DNA of 64,000 nt from Candidatus Aldehydirespiratoraceae bacterium (GTDB lineage: Bacteria > Actinomycetota > Acidimicrobiia > Acidimicrobiales > Aldehydirespiratoraceae), in the NCBI GenBank assembly GCA_965198365.1, contig OZ240617.1:195938-259937 (forward strand), given 5' to 3'. Numbering within the stretch: position 1 is the stretch's first letter; every line of letters starts with the position of its first letter. Below the pieces are notes generated by a model. The model did no database searches. It was given only the letters and a program-made list of their open reading frames with translations, and had not been told where the DNA came from. Position numbers and translations under genes: made by a program. Below are positions 1,898 to 61,096 of this stretch, one piece after another.

Positions 1898-2719
1898 TCA
1901 CTGAAAAAGGGCCAGCAGCTCCTGGTGGATCCGATTGTTGGAGGCTATGGCTGACCCGGAAAGCCAGACATCGGGACCAGTCCGACCGTCGAAGGTGCTG
2001 AAACTCCCGCCGGCCTCAGTGACGATGACAGCGATAGGCGCTAGATCCCAAGGGAATGCCTCCGGATCGATCATCGCTTCAACGCGGCCCGTAGCCACAA
2101 GGGCATAGCCGGAAGCATCACCCCAAGTTCGCAACTTGACGGGACTGTCGAGCAGCGCCGGCAACAGAGCATCGGGCCAGTACCCGAACCCGCTCGTGCA
2201 CACGAAAGCCCCCTCGAGACCTTCGCGGTCGTTGACCCGGCACGGGTCACCGTTGAAGAACGCTCCAAGTCCACGCCCAGCCCAAATCGTCTCACCCAAT
2301 GCAGGCAGGTTGATCACACCCACAGCGGGACCGTGCTCATCGACAAGGGCCAACAGGTTGGCAAAAAGCGGCACGCCCCTCATAAAGGCCTTGGTGCCGT
2401 CGATGGGGTCGATCACCCAAGTTCTGCCTGATGTCCCGGAAGTGTCGGGATGCTCCTCGCCGAGCACGGAGTCATCGGGGAAAGCCGCGTTGAGCCGCTC
2501 ACGGACCAACGTCTCAGCAGCGAGATCGGCAGCGGTCACCGGTGAGCCGTCGTGCTTGTGGTCGACCGAGAGAGCACTCCCGCCATACCACTCAAGAGTG
2601 AGCTCCCCGGCCTCCCGGGCTATTTCAACACAGAAGTCGACGTCTGCTTGGTTGGCTCTTGGTTGGTTGGCTCTTGGTTGGTTGGCTCTTGGTTGGTTGG
2701 CTTTGTCTGGCCGAGTCAC
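1898..2719 (-). CDS. hisN: inositol monophosphatase family protein / histidinol-phosphatase HisN-like
   Basis: IMPase motifs EEHP and WVIDPIDGTKAFMRGVPLFA, plus a C-terminal WD..A motif. GTG start. The N-terminus carries an (ANQPR) repeat. Confidence 0.7.
   Translation of the reverse strand: MTRPDKANQPRANQPRANQPRANQADVDFCVEIAREAGELTLEWYGGSALSVDHKHDGSPVTAADLAAETLVRERLNAAFPDDSVLGEEHPDTSGTSGRTWVIDPIDGTKAFMRGVPLFANLLALVDEHGPAVGVINLPALGETIWAGRGLGAFFNGDPCRVNDREGLEGAFVCTSGFGYWPDALLPALLDSPVKLRTWGDASGYALVATGRVEAMIDPEAFPWDLAPIAVIVTEAGGSFSTFDGRTGPDVWLSGSAIASNNRIHQELLALFQ
2647..2702. repeat. 15-bp tandem repeat CTTGGTTGGTTGGCT, 3 full copies plus 1 partial
   Basis: Read directly from the sequence. On the minus strand it encodes ANQPR ANQPR ANQPR ANQ at the N-terminus of the HisN-like ORF. 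Confidence 0.9.
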
Positions 2720-3284: not shown

Positions 3285-4700
3285 GTGCAACAACTCAGTG
3301 CTCAAGACGCAAGTTTTCTACATCTCGAATCACAACGGACACCGATGCACATCGGGTCGGTCGCGATTTACGACCAAGGCAGCGTTGCGGGCGGAGTAGT
3401 TACCTTCAAGTCCATCCTGACGATGATGGAACAACGCCTCGGCATGGCGCGGTCGTTCACCGAGAGGCTCGTTCATGTGCCGATGAAAGTTGATTACCCG
3501 TATTGGGTGTCCGACCCCGACTTCGACCTCGAATATCACGTACGCCACATAGCGCTTCCCAAGCCAGGAGACTGGCGCCAACTATGGATTCAAGTCGCTC
3601 GCCTCGTTTCACGCCCACTCGACTTGGAACGCCCGCTGTGGGAATTCACCGTCGTTGAAGGACTCGACAATCTCGACGGCATACCAACTGGTGCCTACGC
3701 CATCGTCTCCAAGATCCATCACTGCGCCGTCGACGGTGTATCGGGTCAAGAAATCACCGCGGCAATCCACGATCTCGAACCCGACACTGCCTTGACCGAC
3801 CCGCCTCTGGTGCGCACCGACAACGTGCCCACCGGGGTTGAACTACTCGGACGAGCCGCAGTCAACAGCATTCGTCAGCCATTGCGAGTTCCGAGCCTCA
3901 TCAGGGAGACCGTTCCTGCCCTGGGACGCCTGGCACAGGTGGCCAGCAAAGACGATGTCCACCTGCCCGCAGTACCGGGGCGGGTACCGGTGACTCGATT
4001 CAACCAAAAAGTATCCCCACATCGAGTGATCTCAGGCAAGCGCTTCGACCTCGACGACATCAAAGCGATCAAGAACACAGTGCAGGGCGCAACCATCAAC
4101 GACGCGGTCCTCACCATTTGCGCCGGAGGTATTCGGCGCTACCTCGAACACCACGGCGAACTGCCCGAAGAGAGCCTGACCGCTATGGCCCCGATCTCGG
4201 TGCGCGCCGAAAGCGAACAAAGCGACGCCGGCAACCACGTTGCAGCCATGGTCGTGCGACTGCGCACCGACATTGCCGACGATGTGGAACGGCTGTCAGC
4301 CATCCGCGAGGCTTCAAAAGAATCAAAGGAGCTCACCAACTCGGTGGGTGCTCGGCTGATGACCGACTACACCCAGTTCATTCCCGCGGCGACCGCGGCT
4401 TTGGCCAGTCGCCTGGCAACCCGCCTGGCAGTCAACACCACCCGGCCAGTCGTGAACTGCACGATCAGCAACGTGCCCGGCCCCCAGATTCCGTTGTATG
4501 CGGCATCGGCCCGGTTGATCGACATGTACGGATTCGGTCCACTAGTCGACGGCTTGGCGCTTTTCATTCCGGTACTCAGCTACTGCGGCGGAATCACCAT
4601 CGGCGTTACTTCATGCCGCGAGATCATGCCGGACCCGGAGCGGTTCATGCTGTGCATCGAAGAATCCTTCGAGGAACTCAAAGCCGGCGTGTCGGCCTGA
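3285..4700 (+). CDS. wax ester synthase / diacylglycerol acyltransferase (WS/DGAT)
   Basis: 471 aa. Catalytic HHxxxDG motif (HHCAVDGVSG). N-terminal MQQLSAQDASFLHLE and C-terminal NVPGP motifs are typical of the WS/DGAT family. Confidence 0.85.
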   Translation: MQQLSAQDASFLHLESQRTPMHIGSVAIYDQGSVAGGVVTFKSILTMMEQRLGMARSFTERLVHVPMKVDYPYWVSDPDFDLEYHVRHIALPKPGDWRQLWIQVARLVSRPLDLERPLWEFTVVEGLDNLDGIPTGAYAIVSKIHHCAVDGVSGQEITAAIHDLEPDTALTDPPLVRTDNVPTGVELLGRAAVNSIRQPLRVPSLIRETVPALGRLAQVASKDDVHLPAVPGRVPVTRFNQKVSPHRVISGKRFDLDDIKAIKNTVQGATINDAVLTICAGGIRRYLEHHGELPEESLTAMAPISVRAESEQSDAGNHVAAMVVRLRTDIADDVERLSAIREASKESKELTNSVGARLMTDYTQFIPAATAALASRLATRLAVNTTRPVVNCTISNVPGPQIPLYAASARLIDMYGFGPLVDGLALFIPVLSYCGGITIGVTSCREIMPDPERFMLCIEESFEELKAGVSA

Positions 4701-41442: not shown

Positions 41443-43041
41443 TCATAGGCCGACTATTTGACGCCAGTCAGCCCAGTCACAGTTCTGGGTTCGGTGCTCG
41501 ACGTCGATGGTGTATCCGTCCTCCCATCCTGAGTCTCCGGACTTCGGTATGTAGTTGTGGCCGTCGAGCAGGGTGACCTTGTAGTACCTGGCACGCCATT
41601 GCGCGCCGCACACGTTGTCCCGGGTCGTCGAGATGGAGAGTCCCCCGTTGTAATCCCTGTGCCCGAAGAACGTTGTCCCGGTGGTGGTCTCCGACACGAC
41701 CATCCCGCGTCCGTCGGCCTTGTCGGGGCCGCCGCCGAAGTAGTCGTACACGTCGAGTCTGTAGTTCACGGTCAAACCCGGGGGGTAGGACCCGGCGTGG
41801 TGGCGGGCAAGCCCGAATAGCAGGCCTTGTCCCTCGTCTGCGACCGCGGCGGCGTCGCTGATGCTGATCTCGATAGTCTGGTTCGTGGTCGAGAATTGCT
41901 TCGTCGCTGAGGTGACGGAGAAGTCGGGCGTCTCGTTGGTGGCTGTCCGGTTGTCGCCGGTCAGCGCGAACTGGATCTCGTAGGTCGTGCCGGCGGTCAG
42001 GCCGGTCAAGGCGACGGTGTGGCGGCTAGCAAACGTGAAGCGTTCGGAGGTGACCTCGCCGCCGCCGGTCAGGTTCGTGTACTTCGGGCTGGACCCCGTC
42101 GTCCAGGGGCTGTCGCCGACGGGCTGGTAGCGCCAGTGGAGTCTGGTCCTCGGTGTGGCCTCCCAGATGTTCAGGCTCACCTTCGCCTCGTTCATGAGGA
42201 CGCTGGAAGGGAAGATTCCCGTGATCACCCCGACTGGCTCGTCGTCCACCACGGTCACATCCACGCTGATGGCCTCCCCGTCGAAGCCGCCGCCGGTGGC
42301 GATGAAGTCGAGCGCCACCTTGTCGTTGTTCGCGTCCGCGTCCTGCGCGGCGCTGATCGAGCCGTTCTGGTGCGTCAACCAGTTCTCCGGCGTGAACACG
42401 AACCTTTCGGTGAAGTTGGACACGTCGGTGCCCGCGTCGCCGCTGACCGTCACCGTCACGTTCCCCGTCGGTTTCCCCGCGAACCCCCGGTCGGTGATTA
42501 TCGGTTTCAGCCTCACGCTGTATGACAGCGTCCCGCCCTCGTCCACCTTCATCGGATCCGGAATGACAAGCACACGCCCCGGGGGGTCATCTTCGACGGT
42601 CACCACATAGTTGGCGGACACCCCGCCATAGCCGCCATCGGCGGCACTGTGAATGAGCGTCACAACGTCGTCCCTCCTGTCCGCGTCGCTCGCGGCGGTG
42701 ACCGTCACCGTCTGAAACGTGTTGTAGTTCGACCTCGTGAACGTCAACGACTCTGTGCTCAAGGTCAGATCGGTGCCCTCGTGGCCGCTGATCGTCACCG
42801 TCACGTCCGCGGTCGGCTGCGTCGCCAGCTTCACCATGTAAGTCGCTTGGCTTTGCTCATCCATGGTCAACGCCGTCGGCGTGATTATCAGGTCGGCGGT
42901 CTGCGCCTGGGCCGGATGGCCGCCCGCGACGAGCAATGCCCCGATCAGCGTCGGCAGGACCGCCAGGGCGACGAACCGGCGGCGGACGCGTCCGCGCGTG
43001 GGACGGACGGGGATTCCAGGGGCGGATCCGGTAGTCGTCAT
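41443..43041 (-). CDS. secreted multi-beta-sandwich surface protein (Tat-type signal)
   Basis: Start taken at ATG 43041, preceded by GAGGAAG (43048-43054). Twin-arginine signal RGRVRRRFVALAV...AQA. Contains repeated VTVT(I/V)SG..GTD modules and an FN3-like module. Confidence 0.7.
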   Translation of the reverse strand: MTTTGSAPGIPVRPTRGRVRRRFVALAVLPTLIGALLVAGGHPAQAQTADLIITPTALTMDEQSQATYMVKLATQPTADVTVTISGHEGTDLTLSTESLTFTRSNYNTFQTVTVTAASDADRRDDVVTLIHSAADGGYGGVSANYVVTVEDDPPGRVLVIPDPMKVDEGGTLSYSVRLKPIITDRGFAGKPTGNVTVTVSGDAGTDVSNFTERFVFTPENWLTHQNGSISAAQDADANNDKVALDFIATGGGFDGEAISVDVTVVDDEPVGVITGIFPSSVLMNEAKVSLNIWEATPRTRLHWRYQPVGDSPWTTGSSPKYTNLTGGGEVTSERFTFASRHTVALTGLTAGTTYEIQFALTGDNRTATNETPDFSVTSATKQFSTTNQTIEISISDAAAVADEGQGLLFGLARHHAGSYPPGLTVNYRLDVYDYFGGGPDKADGRGMVVSETTTGTTFFGHRDYNGGLSISTTRDNVCGAQWRARYYKVTLLDGHNYIPKSGDSGWEDGYTIDVEHRTQNCDWADWRQIVGL

Positions 43042-43063
43042 GGCCGGCTTCCTCGGAATCTGC

Positions 43064-43076
43064 GGGGGGGGGGGGG
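43064..43076. repeat. homopolymer G13 (C13 on the coding strand of the 41443..43041 gene)
   Basis: Counted directly and cross-checked against the ORF-track translation APPPPQ. Lies 9 nt upstream of the RBS and 22 nt upstream of the ATG at 43041. Confidence 0.95.
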
Positions 43077-43350
43077 CAAGCCGCTTGGGGCAGGTTCTGA
43101 GGGCGGGCGTTCTCAAGGGCGGAACCGGCGCTGGTCATGGCGTGCCTCCTGGGCATCTAGAGGAAGGAAACGAACGATGCCGTCGCGGACGGCCGGGTGC
43201 GTCGGTGAAACACCGACTACAACGCACCCTATCGTATCAGACATGAAAGAAACATGGAATAGACATGAAAGAAGCATAAATCCCATACGTATAATATTCT
43301 GACGAGACGGACAGGGCAGCCTGTCCTCGATTTAGTCCGTTCTGTTTGCA

Positions 43351-44103
43351 ATGAAACTCCGTCTGCCTTCCTCACGTCTCGTTACGCGGTCGGTGCTGTT
43401 GATCGTGCTCGCCGGCGCCACTGCGTTCTTCCGTCTCGGCCTGACCGATGCCTCCGACAGCGTCACGGTGAGCCATGACGGGTTTCAGCTGACGTGTCCC
43501 GGGCTGATCGAGGAGGGCTCGACCCTGACGTGCATGCTCACGAACACCGCGGCCACCGAGGCGGACTGGCCGGTCGTCGGGATCCTGCACCGGTCGGACG
43601 ACTCGAACAGGGCGCTGGTCCGGGGCTCGCCCCTCGATGTCGAGTTGAGCGCTCCCACTCCCGAAGCCACTATCGAGGGTGGCGTGTGGTGGATCGGTCC
43701 CGACCTTGTCGGCTACTCGTTCTTCGACTGGTCGGGAACGGCGGCCGCGGCACCCGGCGCGACCACGACCACATCCGGCGCGACCACGACCACAACCGGC
43801 GCGACCACGACCACAACCGGCGGGGCCACGAATTCGCGCGACGTCGTCATCAGCATCGTGGATGACGACGATCATGAGAGCGAGGAGGTGTTCTACGTCT
43901 CCCTGGCGTCCGACGGCAGCAGGAACGTGGGAGTTCTGTACAACAACCGGCAGAGGGTCCGGGTCTCAGACGGCGACAGCGAGAGCAGCGACGCGTCCCT
44001 GAGCGACCTCCGCATCTTCGCCGGAGGGGGGGGGGGGGGTAGAGGAGAAGACGCTCACGTTCTCATCGACCGTTCTGTCGTACCAGGTCACGGTCGACTA
44101 TGA
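43351..44103 (+). CDS. N-terminal segment of the giant surface protein (signal/TM segment + Calx-beta-like module + start of a cadherin-like beta-sandwich domain); frame broken at the G14 tract
   Basis: N-terminal hydrophobic segment SVLLIVLAGATAFF. The module TCPGLIEEGSTLTCMLTNT...FDWSG...VFYVSLAS is repeated in the next ORF. The ORF runs through G14 and then stops 64 nt later. Confidence 0.75.
   Translation: MKLRLPSSRLVTRSVLLIVLAGATAFFRLGLTDASDSVTVSHDGFQLTCPGLIEEGSTLTCMLTNTAATEADWPVVGILHRSDDSNRALVRGSPLDVELSAPTPEATIEGGVWWIGPDLVGYSFFDWSGTAAAAPGATTTTSGATTTTTGATTTTTGGATNSRDVVISIVDDDDHESEEVFYVSLASDGSRNVGVLYNNRQRVRVSDGDSESSDASLSDLRIFAGGGGGGRGEDAHVLIDRSVVPGHGRL
44026..44039. repeat. homopolymer G14 at the junction of ORFs 43351..44103 and 44114..52282
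   Basis: Counted directly and checked against the translation FAGGGGGGR. The downstream frame is open from 44003, so G13 (or G16) would fuse both ORFs. Confidence 0.95.
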
Positions 44104-44113
44104 CGTCACAGAG

Positions 44114-52278
<8,165 letters not shown>

Positions 52279-52282
<4 letters not shown>

Positions 52283-52418
52283 CCGAGTCATACCCGCGCC
52301 CGACGGCGGGGGGCTGACCGAGTCATACCCGCGCCCGACGGCGGGGGACTGACCGTGTCATGCCCGCGCCCGACGGCTGGAGACTGACCGAGTCATACCC
52401 GCGCCCGACGGCGGGAGA
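52279..52418. repeat. 4 x 35-bp tandem repeat (CTGACCGAGTCATACCCGCGCCCGACGGCGGGGGG), starting on the stop codon of the giant gene
   Basis: Copies begin at 52279, 52314, 52349 and 52384, with a few substitutions. Each contains CCCGC-N8-GCGGG. The array lies between convergent genes. Confidence 0.9.
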
Positions 52419-56486: not shown

Positions 56487-57947
56487 ATGAGAGGAAATAA
56501 CATGAGAAGCAGAAAGACTCGGATTCTGGGTTTACTCTCAGCGGTGGTACTGATGGCTGTTGTAATATCAGCGACGTCGCTCACCGCGTCAGCAGTCAGC
56601 AATAGTGACTTTACGTTGCGGTGCAGGCCGGGGACGGACAATTCCGAAGCAGAGCCCACCTACGTCACCGAGGGGGATGACTTCGACCTTCAGGTGAAGT
56701 GGTTAAACCGACGAGGCACCACCGGAAAATGGCGTGTCTCATGGGATACCAATGATGACAATCCTGTGTCGGCTAGACATAGCGTCGACTATAATCGTAG
56801 ACACGATCAACAGCAGAGGAAGTCGGTCCTCTATTCCACCATCAACCACACTTTCCAGACGATCGAGGATGACCTGTTCGAGGGACCTGAGACCTTCGAA
56901 GCAGGGATGTATTGGGCGCGCAAGGAGGGCACCTCAAACTCAACGTCGCTGTACTGCGCTGTAGAAATCAGAGACGACGATCCACTAAAGGTGACCTATA
57001 CCAGGCTTCTCAATACGCCTAACCAGGGGTCCTCCTTCAAGGCAGGGGAAACTCTCAAGATAGGCACATATTTCAACGGGTCGGTCCAAGCCAGCGATGG
57101 CTCATACCTCGTATTGAAGTTTAAAGACGCAGACGACAACGTCCGATATAGGAGAGCCTACTACAGCGATAGCGCGACTAGATCCGTAGTAGGTAGAACT
57201 ACCTGGGCGGTCTTTACGTACACGGTGCAACCTGGCGACTTGAACTCATTAGACATCGCCGTGAATTCGGGATTCCGCGGTGACCCCATTTACGGTGTCT
57301 ACACCAACGGAACGGTCTCGGATGTACAGCCCCAAGAACAAGGTAACGTCGACCCATTAAAGGTGTGGGCCTCAGATGCGGTGGGTAACGGAGTTTTTGC
57401 CATCGACGGTTTGACCGGTCATCCCAGGATTACCGGCATAGAGGTCATCACTTCGCCCGAAGCGCCAGATGCCCCATGGGAAGTCGGAGAAGACAGCAGC
57501 TCTGGGGACTACGAAGGTAGCGAATATTTCGATAGCTGGCACGGCCAAACCTATCGGGCAGGTGACGAGATCGAATTCCGGGTGGCTTTCGATCACCCCG
57601 TAGCTGTTTCGGGGGATGTTGGGATCAGCCTTAGCTTGAACGGCTGGCGGGGCGCCAATTACAAGAACTCCTCCGGACACATACCTTTCACCGTCCACGC
57701 GAATTACAGGGGGAGAACATACTCCAGCCACTTGGTGTTCGGATACACGGTGAAGGCTTCCGATCTGGCCAGCGACGGGTTCAAAGTCCAGAATGGAGGA
57801 ATTTCCGACGATGGGCTCACAATATACGGATTCCACGGGTCGGGAAGGATCTTCAATACCTCTGGCAAAGCTGTGAACCCAGGTTTGCGGGCACGACGTC
57901 ATCCGATAGGGTGGACGGGCGTCCGTACGTCGAAAATATCTCGATAA
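56487..57947 (+). CDS. secreted repeat surface protein, N-terminal part (probably one gene with 57911..61096)
   Basis: Signal peptide MRSRKTRILGLLSAVVLMAVVISATSLTASA. Contains modules of the type P.I..I.(I/V)(T/I)S.P....Y..G(D/E).I...V.F, also present in the next ORF. Confidence 0.7.
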   Translation: MRGNNMRSRKTRILGLLSAVVLMAVVISATSLTASAVSNSDFTLRCRPGTDNSEAEPTYVTEGDDFDLQVKWLNRRGTTGKWRVSWDTNDDNPVSARHSVDYNRRHDQQQRKSVLYSTINHTFQTIEDDLFEGPETFEAGMYWARKEGTSNSTSLYCAVEIRDDDPLKVTYTRLLNTPNQGSSFKAGETLKIGTYFNGSVQASDGSYLVLKFKDADDNVRYRRAYYSDSATRSVVGRTTWAVFTYTVQPGDLNSLDIAVNSGFRGDPIYGVYTNGTVSDVQPQEQGNVDPLKVWASDAVGNGVFAIDGLTGHPRITGIEVITSPEAPDAPWEVGEDSSSGDYEGSEYFDSWHGQTYRAGDEIEFRVAFDHPVAVSGDVGISLSLNGWRGANYKNSSGHIPFTVHANYRGRTYSSHLVFGYTVKASDLASDGFKVQNGGISDDGLTIYGFHGSGRIFNTSGKAVNPGLRARRHPIGWTGVRTSKISR

Positions 57948-60900
57948 TCTCCACGCCAGCCGTGGACCAAACTTACACGGATGGCGAAACCATCAAGGTT
58001 GAGCTCGACTTCAGTGAGGAAGTCGATGTGGAGGGCGCTCCGCTGCTGCCTCTGGAGATGTACGACTCGGACAGCGACACCGATGGCTATCGGCTGTTGT
58101 CCTACGCATCGGGTACGGGAACCGACAAGGTGGTCTTGGCCTATCAGGTCCAAGAGGACGACTCAGATACCAACGGCGTCGCCACACGACTTAACGGATT
58201 TGACTTCAATATCGCCGGTGGAACTTTCAAGGCCAAGGGCACCGACGTGGAATTCGATTCCCGGTTCGTCGGCCTCGTGGATGACTCTGACCACAAGGTA
58301 GACGGTTCCATCGGTGCGCCGTATATCACCGACATTGACATCACTTCGCTCCCCGGAGAGGACGGCACCTACGGCATTGGTGACAAGATTGAGATAGAGG
58401 TTTCTTTCAACAAGGACTTCTCGGTTAGCTATCCCGATAATTCGGACGTGTCCGAGGATTCTTCAGCCGACTCGGGGCTAGAGAGTAGCTCGTCGGCCGT
58501 CGCCGATGAGACGGATCAACCGGTAGTGTTACAAACGTCGCCCACACTGGAAGTCCAGGTAGGAGAAAAGTTCATACGGTTCCCGTTGACGACCACCGAA
58601 GCCTCAAAGCTGACTTTTGCCTACAAGGTAGGCGTTGGAGACGAGGATCGTGACGGCATCTCCATCGGCGCGAACGTGCTGGCGTCCCATGACGCCACCA
58701 TCGCTGGCGACATTGGCAATGGAACCATCAGAGCCGCCGCCTTGGACCATGACGCTCTCACTGACGACAGAAGCCACAGGGTGGATGGCCGGCTCTTGGT
58801 GCCGGAGAATTCGCCGGCGGGGACCGTTGTGGGCGATCCCGACATTCTGAGTGCGCCCTATTCCATTAGCGGAGGCGATGCTGCGTTCTTCACCGTCGAT
58901 TCGGATACAGGCGAATTGTCGACGTCGGAGACGGCGGAGTCGCTGGACTACGAGACGAAGTCCACCTACTCCTTCCAATACACAGGCAACAGCATCTCCA
59001 GAACCATTACCGTCCACGTGACCGACGTGGACGAGGAAGGCTCCATCACTCTGAATGCCGACTCCCATAAGGCTGGGGACACACTGGTGCCCACGCTCAC
59101 CGACCCGGACGGCGGCGTGATGAATATCAGTTGGCAGTGGCAGGCCTCCCTGCATGGGGATCCTTGGACAAATCTCCCGTGGGGCAGGGCCAAGGACTTC
59201 CGCGTGGACGGTGATACCGCGACTGGCCTTCTGCGGGTCAAAGCGAATTACACCGACAACTTTGGCTCCGGCAAAGAGGTCTATTCGGCCCACTCTCGTG
59301 ACAGGGATATTCCGTACGCATGGGATACTGAGATCACCTCTAGCCCGGAATCGGGGAACACCTACGAACTAGGTGAAGTTATCGAGGTCTTGGTGCAGTA
59401 CACCGAGCACGTCCAAATCACGGGCACACCCGAGCTGGAATTGACCCTCGGCGACGAAACGGTGTCAGCCAGCTTCGACCGTGTTGAAAGAACTGGCAAT
59501 GTGTACTTCCAGTACACGGTGCAAAGGGCTGACTACGACAACAACGGTATTTCCGTTGCTGCGGACCCGCCGATTGACCTGAACGGCGGCGAGATTGTCG
59601 ACTTCGGAGGCAACGCAGCCAAGCGGGGAATAGCGACTCAGTTGAATGACCAGTCGGGGCACAAGGTGGATGCCAGGCTCTCGGTGCCGGAGAATTCGCC
59701 CAGGGGGACTCTCGTGGGCATTCCCGGCGATTTAACGGGGCCCTATTCCATTAGCGGGGAAGATGCTAAGTCTTTCTTCGTCGATTCCCTGACGGGCGAA
59801 TTGTCGACGGAGGAGTCGCTGGACTACGAGAGGCAGTCCTCCTACTCCTTCCAATGGACAGGCGGCAGCGAGTCCAAACACGTGACCGTCCTCGTGACCA
59901 ACGTGGACGAACCAGGCTCCATCTTTCTGAATGCCAGCTTCCATAACGATGGGGACACGCTGTTGCCCGTGCTCACCGACCCGGACGGCGGGGTCGGTGA
60001 GACGAGGATCAGCTGGCAGTGGCAGGCCTCCAATCAAGGGGGACCTTGGGTCGACATCCCGTCTGGCAGGAACAAGGGTTTCACCGTGGGCAGTGGTAAC
60101 GCGAATACCCTTCTGCGGGTCAAGGCGGTTTACACCGACAACCAAGGCCCCGACAAAGTGGCCTACTCTGAACCCTCTCGTGACCTGGTAGAACCGCAGA
60201 TATATGAAACTGTGATCACCTCTAGCCCGGAATCGGGGGACGTCTACGACATCGGTGAAGTCATCGAGGTCAAGGTGGAGTTCACCGAGCATGTCCAAGC
60301 CACAGGCCCGGTCAGTCTGGATTTGACCATCGGCGACAGCACGGTGGAAGCCATCTTGGACCGCGTTGAATCTGACGGCAGGGTGTACTTCGTGTACACG
60401 GTGCAAACGGGTGACTACGACGACAACGGTGTTTCCGTTGCTGCGGGCCCGTCGATTGACCTGAACGGCGGCCGGATTGCCGACTTCGGAGGCAACGAGG
60501 CCACGCTGGTATTGACAGCAACGGAGGCAATAGGCGACCACTCATTCCACAAGGTGGATGCCAGGCTGAAGTTGAGGGTGGATGAGAATTCGCCCGCGGG
60601 GACTCCTGTGGGCATCGCCAATCCACTCGGACTGGAAGGGCCCCATTCCATCAGCGGGGATGATGCTGCGTCCTTCAGCGTCGATTCCACAACGGGCCAA
60701 TTGTCGACGGTTGAGCTGCTGGACTATGAGACGAAGTCCTCCTACTCCTTGCAATGGACAGGCAACGGCGTGACCAATGACATCACCGTCCTCGTGGGCA
60801 ACGTGAACGAACCGGGCTCCGTCACTCTGAATGTCACCAGCCACGCGTCTGGGACGCAGCTGGTGCCCACGCTCACCGACCCGGACGGCGTTGCGTCGAT

Positions 60901-61096
60901 TGAAACTTGGCAGTGGGAGATCGCCTGGACACCGGGCGCTTGGTTCGACCTCCCGTACGGCACGGGGGTGAAGGACTTCACCGTGGACGGCGATGCCGCG
61001 CCAGGCCAGTTGCGGGTCAAAGTGTTGTACGTCGACAGCCTTGGCGAAGGGGTAACGCTGTATTCGAATGTCTCATCACCGGTGGGAGGCCTCTAG
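57911..61096 (+). CDS. repeat surface protein, C-terminal part: 3 x ~265-aa super-repeats (Ig-like module + cadherin-like module + PxxGxxLxPxLTDPDG module)
   Basis: No signal peptide of its own. Its frame is open well upstream of the GTG at 57911 and overlaps the end of the previous ORF. Repeated (H)(K/R)VD(G/A)RL..(P)ENSP and LTDPDGG..ISWQWQ blocks. Confidence 0.7.
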   Translation: MDGRPYVENISIISTPAVDQTYTDGETIKVELDFSEEVDVEGAPLLPLEMYDSDSDTDGYRLLSYASGTGTDKVVLAYQVQEDDSDTNGVATRLNGFDFNIAGGTFKAKGTDVEFDSRFVGLVDDSDHKVDGSIGAPYITDIDITSLPGEDGTYGIGDKIEIEVSFNKDFSVSYPDNSDVSEDSSADSGLESSSSAVADETDQPVVLQTSPTLEVQVGEKFIRFPLTTTEASKLTFAYKVGVGDEDRDGISIGANVLASHDATIAGDIGNGTIRAAALDHDALTDDRSHRVDGRLLVPENSPAGTVVGDPDILSAPYSISGGDAAFFTVDSDTGELSTSETAESLDYETKSTYSFQYTGNSISRTITVHVTDVDEEGSITLNADSHKAGDTLVPTLTDPDGGVMNISWQWQASLHGDPWTNLPWGRAKDFRVDGDTATGLLRVKANYTDNFGSGKEVYSAHSRDRDIPYAWDTEITSSPESGNTYELGEVIEVLVQYTEHVQITGTPELELTLGDETVSASFDRVERTGNVYFQYTVQRADYDNNGISVAADPPIDLNGGEIVDFGGNAAKRGIATQLNDQSGHKVDARLSVPENSPRGTLVGIPGDLTGPYSISGEDAKSFFVDSLTGELSTEESLDYERQSSYSFQWTGGSESKHVTVLVTNVDEPGSIFLNASFHNDGDTLLPVLTDPDGGVGETRISWQWQASNQGGPWVDIPSGRNKGFTVGSGNANTLLRVKAVYTDNQGPDKVAYSEPSRDLVEPQIYETVITSSPESGDVYDIGEVIEVKVEFTEHVQATGPVSLDLTIGDSTVEAILDRVESDGRVYFVYTVQTGDYDDNGVSVAAGPSIDLNGGRIADFGGNEATLVLTATEAIGDHSFHKVDARLKLRVDENSPAGTPVGIANPLGLEGPHSISGDDAASFSVDSTTGQLSTVELLDYETKSSYSLQWTGNGVTNDITVLVGNVNEPGSVTLNVTSHASGTQLVPTLTDPDGVASIETWQWEIAWTPGAWFDLPYGTGVKDFTVDGDAAPGQLRVKVLYVDSLGEGVTLYSNVSSPVGGL

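Follow-up and report, generated by a model that had tools for sequence, protein, structure and literature searches.

A length-variable poly-G tract as a candidate ON/OFF switch of a giant surface-protein gene in a sponge-symbiotic member of the Acidimicrobiia

Introduction

In a 64,000-nucleotide (nt) stretch of contig OZ240617.1 from a Candidatus (Ca.) Aldehydirespiratoraceae bacterium (positions 195,938 to 259,937; hereafter called the window), a gene encoding a giant surface protein is divided into two open reading frames (ORFs) by a run of 14 G. The length of this G14 tract differs in each of the related genomes found, and the differences flip the reading frame between close strains. An earlier reading of the window, made from its sequence only, had proposed a candidate slipped-strand ON/OFF switch at this site, and the series of tract lengths in the relatives supports this proposal. 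We therefore consider it likely, although not assured, that the locus carries a true hypervariable switch repeat of the contingency type and is not a plain pseudogene.

The source lineage belongs to the sponge-symbiotic Acidimicrobiia and is related to Ca. Poriferisodalis. In a genome scan, the closest species representative was a Ca. Poriferisodalis sp. chromosome with 83% amino-acid identity, and the weaker matches were other sponge-associated Acidimicrobiales. Sponge-associated Actinobacteriota have been described as enriched in proteins with eukaryote-like domains, such as cadherin, fn3 and Calx-beta, whereas the way in which sponge symbionts escape being eaten by their host was stated to be unknown (PMC11706023). 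The domain types of the giant protein belong to these enriched classes (PMC11706023).

The G14 tract and the reading frame

All coordinates are compiled in Table 1. The tract and the two ORFs lie at the positions and in the frames that the sequence-only reading had given. The frame of the downstream ORF is already open at 44003, ahead of its GTG start codon, and the G14 tract is the sole separator of both ORFs. As had been predicted, the loss of one G fuses them: deleting one G in silico yields a single ORF of 2,976 amino acids (aa) without any internal stop, which reads ...LRIFAGGGGGVEEKTLTF... The product of the upstream ORF contains a Thr-rich repeat with a unit of 7 aa and ends in an out-of-frame tail of 20 aa.

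The frame rule is simple and applies to all genomes compared. A tract of n G with n = 1 mod 3 is in frame, whereas n = 0 mod 3 places a TAG directly 3' of the tract and n = 2 mod 3, as in the window, leads to the stop at 44101-44103. The tract is situated 0.68 kb into the 9-kb gene, where the first loop of a cadherin-like domain is encoded. Downstream of it, 8.2 kb of the ORF in the window contain no stop and no second frameshift.

The G+C content of the window is 62%. When the window was shuffled 100 times with its dinucleotides preserved, the expected count for a pattern of 13 consecutive G was 0.00, in agreement with the earlier statement that a chance occurrence is very unlikely. Within the 64 kb, the only homopolymers of at least 8 bases are the G14 tract and a G13 tract at 43064-43076, which the sequence-only reading had missed; the next longest run has 7 bases.

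The codon usage around the tract points in the same direction. Here, the five Gly codons are GGA GGG GGG GGG GGG, while in the giant gene as a whole, 54 of 316 Gly codons are GGG. Close to the 3' end of the same gene, poly-Gly linkers are encoded almost without GGG (Table 1). These linkers serve as an internal control and show that poly-Gly per se needs no homopolymer in this organism. The G homopolymer at the tract is therefore favoured by selection or, at the least, tolerated.

Domain architecture of the fused protein

The fused protein starts with a signal peptide, followed by a first module, a cadherin-like domain, a second module, two FN3 domains, a further cadherin-like domain, Spondin_N and a cadherin domain. 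This part is continued by a sulfatase with a CTPSR motif, an SWM repeat, many Cadherin/Big_9 repeats, the poly-Gly linkers and two SLH-like repeats.

The most informative part is the one across the break. The sequence-only reading had argued that one cadherin-like domain spans it, and this is what the Pfam search returned: PF12733 (Cadherin-like beta sandwich) matches residues 218-313 of the fused protein with a family E-value of 3.6e-26, and the match straddles the junction at about residue 225-230. Furthermore, the N-terminal 487 aa of the fused protein are covered to 92-99% by continuous homologues with 45-51% identity from metagenome-assembled genomes (MAGs) of Acidimicrobiia. These homologue searches gave no protein larger than about 1,250 aa, and the giant orthologues were reached via neighbouring genes.

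The first module had been described as a Calx-beta-like module that recurs after the break. The recurrence is confirmed, since a copy is found there with 33% identity and an E-value of 4e-12, whereas the label is weak, as the Calx-beta match of the N-terminal module (E-value 0.0013) lies under the Pfam cutoff. Likewise, the claim that a signal segment is present only in the short ORF stands: the only strongly hydrophobic windows of 19 residues in the fused protein start at residues 9-15 and cover approximately residues 9-33. At the other end, two SLH-like repeats with the pattern ...ITVGC..PLRYCPDRPVTRAEMASFL are visible. The match to SLH (PF00395) falls just short of the cutoff, with 20.3 versus 20.8 bits, and homologues have precomputed PF00395 matches.

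Some parts of the protein vary independently of the tract. The (G/S)ATTTT(T/S) linker is shortest in L015 (17 aa) and longest in L001 (38 aa); it has 24 aa in L016 and L002 and 31 aa in L014 as well as in the window (loci are designated as in Table 1). The changing placement of the sulfatase module (Table 1) is module shuffling between strains and not part of the switch itself; presumably, it proceeds via recombination between the repeated cadherin domains.

Tract length in related genomes

The orthologous tract site was read in five other genomes and inferred for a sixth. The comparison that the sequence-only reading had suggested thus became possible, and G7, G10, G11, G13 and about G20 were seen in addition to the G14 of the window. 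G7, G10 and G13 are in frame, while G11, G14 and about G20 are out of frame. In two of the other genomes, the truncated upstream product has been called as a protein of its own (P0277 with 270 aa and P0278 with 241 aa).

The closest comparison is the one with L015, which shares 96-98% nucleotide identity with the window in the shared parts of the locus. Around the tract, both sequences differ by 7 G and are otherwise identical in an alignment of 114 nt. In a longer alignment of 2.9 kb, 98 substitutions are present and the only gap is the tract.

The synonymous divergence (dS) to the window amounts to 0.045 for L015, 0.083 for L016, 0.108 for L014 and 0.53 for L002, and that between L016 (OFF) and L014 (ON) to about 0.11. 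Along the series window, L015, L016, L014 and L002, the states are OFF, ON, OFF, ON and ON. On the shallow tree of these genomes, ON and OFF lineages are intermingled, so that the state must have switched independently at least twice. Moreover, length differences of 3-13 nt cannot be consensus errors of plus or minus one base, and the tract is therefore a real length-variable repeat. It has been held at the same site over a dS of about 0.5, contrary to the codon preference of the gene.

The part of the gene behind the tract is intact also where it is out of frame. This was judged on the two OFF alleles for which DNA was read at adequate coverage, namely the window and L016, with downstream ORFs of 2722 and 2283 aa, respectively. 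Relaxed selection in the OFF lineages was sought by the ratio of nonsynonymous to synonymous divergence (dN/dS); over all pairs, no contrast and no excess in the OFF lineages was found. The ratio was 0.5-0.8 over all pairs, with equal values of 0.5-0.6 for ON-ON and OFF-OFF pairs.

A search for further strains through the clusters of the giant products added none, with one contig per allele in the exact-product look-ups. For the proteins of the window itself and for P0150, P0271 and P0277, such look-ups matched no contig. A metagenome scan returned one distant relative, which lacks the tract.

Table 1. Features of the locus in the window, state of the orthologous tract in related genomes, and long tracts at other loci
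Feature	Sequence	Position	Strand	Remarks
Whole surface-protein gene	window	43351..52282	+	2,976 aa read-through if tract is G13, G10 or G7
Upstream ORF, product of the OFF state	window	43351..44103	+	250 aa; signal peptide, first module, Thr-rich repeat, first cadherin-like strand, out-of-frame tail
In-frame tandem repeat of 21 nt	window	43754..43831	+	3.7 copies; encodes (G/S)ATTTT(T/S) units
G14 homopolymer, proposed slippage site	window	44026..44039	+	out of frame
Downstream ORF	window	44114..52282	+	2722 aa; GTG start; 0 internal stops; without own signal peptide
Sulfatase module	window	46680..48627	+	missing in L015 orthologue; separate neighbouring gene in L014 (10288-12265)
Poly-Gly linkers of 28, 9 and 7 Gly	window	51635..51926	+	alternating GGC/GGT; GGG 2/44 codons
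Second tract	window	43064..43076	+	G13 on + strand, C13 on strand of divergent gene
Divergent gene	window	41443..43041	-	532-aa secreted protein; Ig-like/FN3-like domains; leader holds second tract
Orthologous tract	L015 (ENA ERZ25067264, ctg836520_21x_l)			GGA+G7; in frame; called as one 2358-aa gene
Orthologous tract	L014 (ctg836639_51x_c, circular, 4.17 Mb)			G10; in frame; 2328 aa
Orthologous tract	L002 (NZ_OZ240249.1, Ca. Poriferisodalis sp. chromosome)			G13; in frame over at least 1479 aa, up to locus end
Orthologous tract	L016 (ctg836652_28x_c, circular, 4.59 Mb)			G11; out of frame; 241 aa (P0278) + 2283 aa
Orthologous tract	genome of P0277 (4.15-Mb contig)			about G20, inferred from protein only; out of frame; 270-aa product ending ...FAGGGGGGGGRGEDAH
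Orthologous tract	L001 (3x contig)			G6AG7; out of frame; further stops downstream
G13 tract	L008 (second Ca. Poriferisodalis chromosome)	2700-2712		directly after ATG, before signal peptide of divergent secreted protein (MHGGGGVERPRSRSRVVAIAALAVAA...)
G16 tract	L014	9982-9997		just past putative signal peptide of sulfatase-SWM-SLH gene
G13 tract	L018 (related symbiont, another sample)	3983-3995		between 364-aa signal-peptide ORF and sulfatase-SWM-SLH ORF
C12 tract	L018	3019-3030		near 5' end of same sulfatase-SWM-SLH gene

Alternative explanations

Several observations weigh against a functional switch and have to be considered together with the other explanations of the frameshift. Judged from their names and from the circular contigs of Mb size, the related contigs seem to derive from metagenomes assembled from long reads, a type of assembly that is least reliable in long homopolymers. 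All OFF alleles (4/4) have the length of an ON allele plus one (n = 2 mod 3), which would occur by chance in about 1 of 16 cases, and a systematic over-call of long G runs by one base in the assembly pipeline would give the same pattern. A second surface-protein gene of the window, at 56487-61096, is also split, either by a real inactivation or by an assembly indel, and in both cases the strain or the assembly has other indels. The dN/dS values of 0.5-0.8 indicate a weak constraint on the giant gene. Finally, the chance retention of four GGG codons at a dS of about 0.5 to L002 is unlikely, although not negligible.

One other explanation is a consensus miscall in the assembly of the window. The repeat would then be truly variable, but the majority of the window strain would carry G13 with the gene ON, and the extra G would be an error of the reads or of polishing. 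Homopolymers of 14 nt are a classic weak point of sequencing and polishing, the in-frame G13 is precisely the length found in L002, the downstream ORF is perfectly intact, and a systematic over-call predicts OFF alleles of the type ON plus one. Nevertheless, the out-of-frame G11 of L016 is located in a circular contig labelled 28x, and the same assembly, ERZ25067264, yields the in-frame G7 and G10 for two other co-occurring strains, labelled 21x and 51x. Three different lengths from one assembly mean that no uniform length bias is evident. In addition, the truncated ORF is present in three independent genomes. A miscall of G14 is thus rather unlikely, yet far from negligible; it is compatible with a true hypervariable repeat of the switch type, as it touches the state of one genome only while the length variation between strains remains. 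A spurious poly-G sequencing artefact, on the other hand, is ruled out, because the tracts are internal to contigs of Mb size, have conserved coding flanks, occur in several assemblies and consist of in-frame Gly codons.

If the frameshift merely happened to fall into the G run, the gene would be a plain pseudogene that decays without any switching function. The second frameshifted surface-protein gene (56487..57947 and 57911..61096 in the window versus 1537 aa in relatives), the high dN/dS and the further stops in the copy of L001 would fit to this. However, L001 is a 3x contig, so its additional stops are unreliable, and dN/dS is equal for OFF and ON alleles. The downstream ORF runs over 8.2 kb without a stop or a second frameshift, and the tract has been held at one site despite the codon preference. 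Contrary to the plain pseudogene that the sequence-only reading had considered as the alternative, the relatives carry intact, in-frame genes, as the alleles of L015, L014 and L002 are called or read as long genes. The lack of secondary lesions in the window and in L016 together with the lack of a dN/dS excess in the OFF lineages makes a plain decaying pseudogene unlikely, and we would give this explanation very little weight.

Hardly more probable is a recoding event, in which slippage of the RNA polymerase or a +1 slippage of the ribosome would restore the frame in a fraction of the products, so that the OFF alleles would be leaky and yield the 250-aa as well as the full-length protein. Transcriptional slippage on long homopolymers is known in bacteria, mainly for A/T runs, and the OFF alleles all share the same +1 phase. 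Such slippage is less documented on G/C than on A/T runs, however, and the out-of-frame layout is not shared by the three relatives that read in a single frame; expression therefore does not require recoding. In its obligatory form, recoding is ruled out by the single reading frame of L015, L014 and L002.

The second tract and the divergent secreted-protein gene

The second long homopolymer of the window lies 22 nt upstream of the ATG (43041) of the divergent gene, with a Shine-Dalgarno-like GAGGAAG in between. It is variable as well. In L015, it comprises 24 nt, a difference of 11 nt, while the flanks are identical at 140 of 140 aligned positions. This C24 tract brings an upstream ATG in frame, and the divergent gene has been called with 566 aa in L015. 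The tract at 43064-43076 probably tunes the divergent secreted-protein gene in a manner similar to that proposed for the giant gene. It could equally be a promoter spacer, a part of the 5' untranslated region (UTR) or an extension of the N-terminus like the one in the 566-aa call. A consensus scan of the sigma-70 type for promoters and terminators in the region 42900-43450 found nothing.

Between this tract and the giant gene, the region 43230-43300 is AT-rich and harbors a direct repeat (GACATGAAAGAA.CAT, twice) as well as a perfect TATAAT at 43290-43295. It may represent a promoter together with a regulator-binding site, a candidate that the consensus promoter scan did not call.

Long tracts at other loci

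A census of run lengths was performed over 258 kb, comprising the window and the fetched loci. Background runs stop at 7 nt, and the outliers of 9-24 nt all fall within or next to genes whose products are secreted or surface proteins; the loci had been fetched around such genes. Within these fetched loci, tracts of 12-24 nt are present at five further sites, each again in or beside such a gene. As the loci were chosen in this way, the concentration of tracts in surface- and secreted-protein genes is suggestive.

Individual tracts are listed in Table 1. In L014, the sulfatase gene has been called from a start after its G16 tract and the signal peptide is lost from the call. At the orthologous position, L019 contains an interrupted sequence that is not a homopolymer. 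For L018, a tract of G14 or G11 instead of G13 would join both ORFs into a protein of about 1,326 aa.

Surroundings of the locus

The split surface-protein gene at 56487-61096 consists of two ORFs of 486 aa (56487..57947) and 1061 aa (57911..61096) in the window, and is a single gene of 1537 aa in two related strains. The split is found near 57897, where the window reads AACCCAGG and L017 reads AACCCCAGG (C4 to C3), and thus not at a long tract.

A 35-nt tandem repeat (CTGACCGAGTCATACCCGCGCCCGACGGCGGGGGA), which extends over 3.5 copies (52279-52400), begins right at the giant gene's stop codon. An exact search with a 16-nt core of its unit gave three matches in the window and one in L015. Several toxin-antitoxin pairs (PIN/PhdYeFM, HTH_37) are encoded near the locus in the related strain (L015 and L017), and transposase genes are present on the flanks of the orthologous locus in L014. 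Overall, the locus seems to lie in a variable genome region that resembles an island.

Comparison with known systems

Contingency loci with poly-G/C tracts from Neisseria, Haemophilus, Campylobacter and Helicobacter form the obvious comparison set, for example hmbR/hpuAB, pgtA and Cj1295 (PMC3786947, PMC2193922, PMC3068675, PMC8355987). Like in these loci, a long G run is located in the 5' part of a surface-associated gene and sets the frame by its length, the strains vary in length and in ON/OFF state, and the downstream ORF is intact. In contrast to the proteobacterial pathogens, the organism here is a sponge symbiont from the Acidimicrobiia that has not been cultured, the tract is found 0.68 kb inside a 9-kb multi-domain gene, and it is from the comparison of strains alone that we infer switching here.

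Within the Actinomycetota, the tracts of Mycobacterium tuberculosis are short, with about 7-9 nt. Those described here have lengths of 7-24 nt, and the proteins targeted are giant surface proteins that carry eukaryote-like domains and end in an SLH-like tail. Common to the M. tuberculosis complex, where glpK with its 7C tract and other genes have been studied, and the present locus are the phylum, frameshifting indels in G/C homopolymers and a silencing that is reversible in the former and proposed to be so here (PMC10334774, bioRxiv 10.1101/717272). The sequence-only reading had stated that this type of switch is rarely described in Actinomycetota. This has to be restricted in view of M. tuberculosis, in which homopolymer phase variation is well documented (PMC10334774). 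For Poriferisodalis, Acidimicrobiia and sponge symbionts, no report of phase variation was found in the papers searched.

The second tract has other counterparts. Homopolymeric tracts of Bordetella pertussis (PMC1891110) and the poly-A tract of nspA from Neisseria (PMC6389960) are likewise intergenic homopolymers beside a gene. Unlike in these promoter or leader tracts, the promoter geometry of the second tract was not located, the sigma-70-type scan being empty, and a 5' UTR or an N-terminal extension would be equally possible. Frameshift or slippage systems such as dnaX, the IS3/IS630 transposases and Shigella mxiE also have a homopolymer at the junction of overlapping frames. However, they keep the two-frame layout in all relatives, whereas relatives of the present gene are in frame.

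Proposed mechanism and implications

The mechanism that would account for these observations is an ordinary one. During replication, the nascent and the template strand would misalign within the G run, by which G's are gained or lost. At n = 1 mod 3 (7, 10, 13 and so on), a secreted protein of approximately 2,300-3,000 aa with an SLH-like tail would be produced, which would display the cadherin, FN3, spondin and sulfatase domains. At all other lengths, translation would end after the signal peptide and the first module, and the downstream part would neither be made with a signal peptide nor be exported. The window, with its G14, would represent an OFF length.

Such a state would be heritable and yet reversible, so that a population would mix displaying and non-displaying cells. 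A possible benefit would be the escape from phagocytes of the host, from phages or from recognition by the host. Slippage itself, its reversibility, the heterogeneity within a population, the rate of switching and the benefit for fitness are what we infer from assembled sequences rather than from reads. The novelty would lie in the lineage, in the apparent occurrence at several loci and in the targets, namely a mutualist's giant surface proteins with eukaryote-like domains.

Taking the other long tracts into account, a broader hypothesis can be put forward, which is tentative and may well prove too far-reaching. The sponge-symbiotic Acidimicrobiia, Ca. Poriferisodalis and its relatives, might possess a multi-locus set of phase-variable poly-G/C tracts that stochastically switches giant surface proteins as well as secreted enzymes with eukaryote-like cadherin, FN3, spondin and sulfatase domains. 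Different surface types would then coexist, like a mosaic, in the mutualist population of a single host, which would be a form of bet-hedging against phagocytes of the host, phages or recognition by the host, in a lineage from which no comparable strategy has been reported.

For genome analysis, the tracts have a direct consequence, since automated annotation splits or truncates genes at them, and several of the called products thereby lack the signal peptide. If the switch is real, the call of a "pseudogene" in a MAG at such genes would be a snapshot of the switch state and not the loss of a gene, and the symbiont population would be phenotypically mixed. Simple-repeat phase variation would then reach beyond pathogens and, within the Actinomycetota, beyond Mycobacterium.

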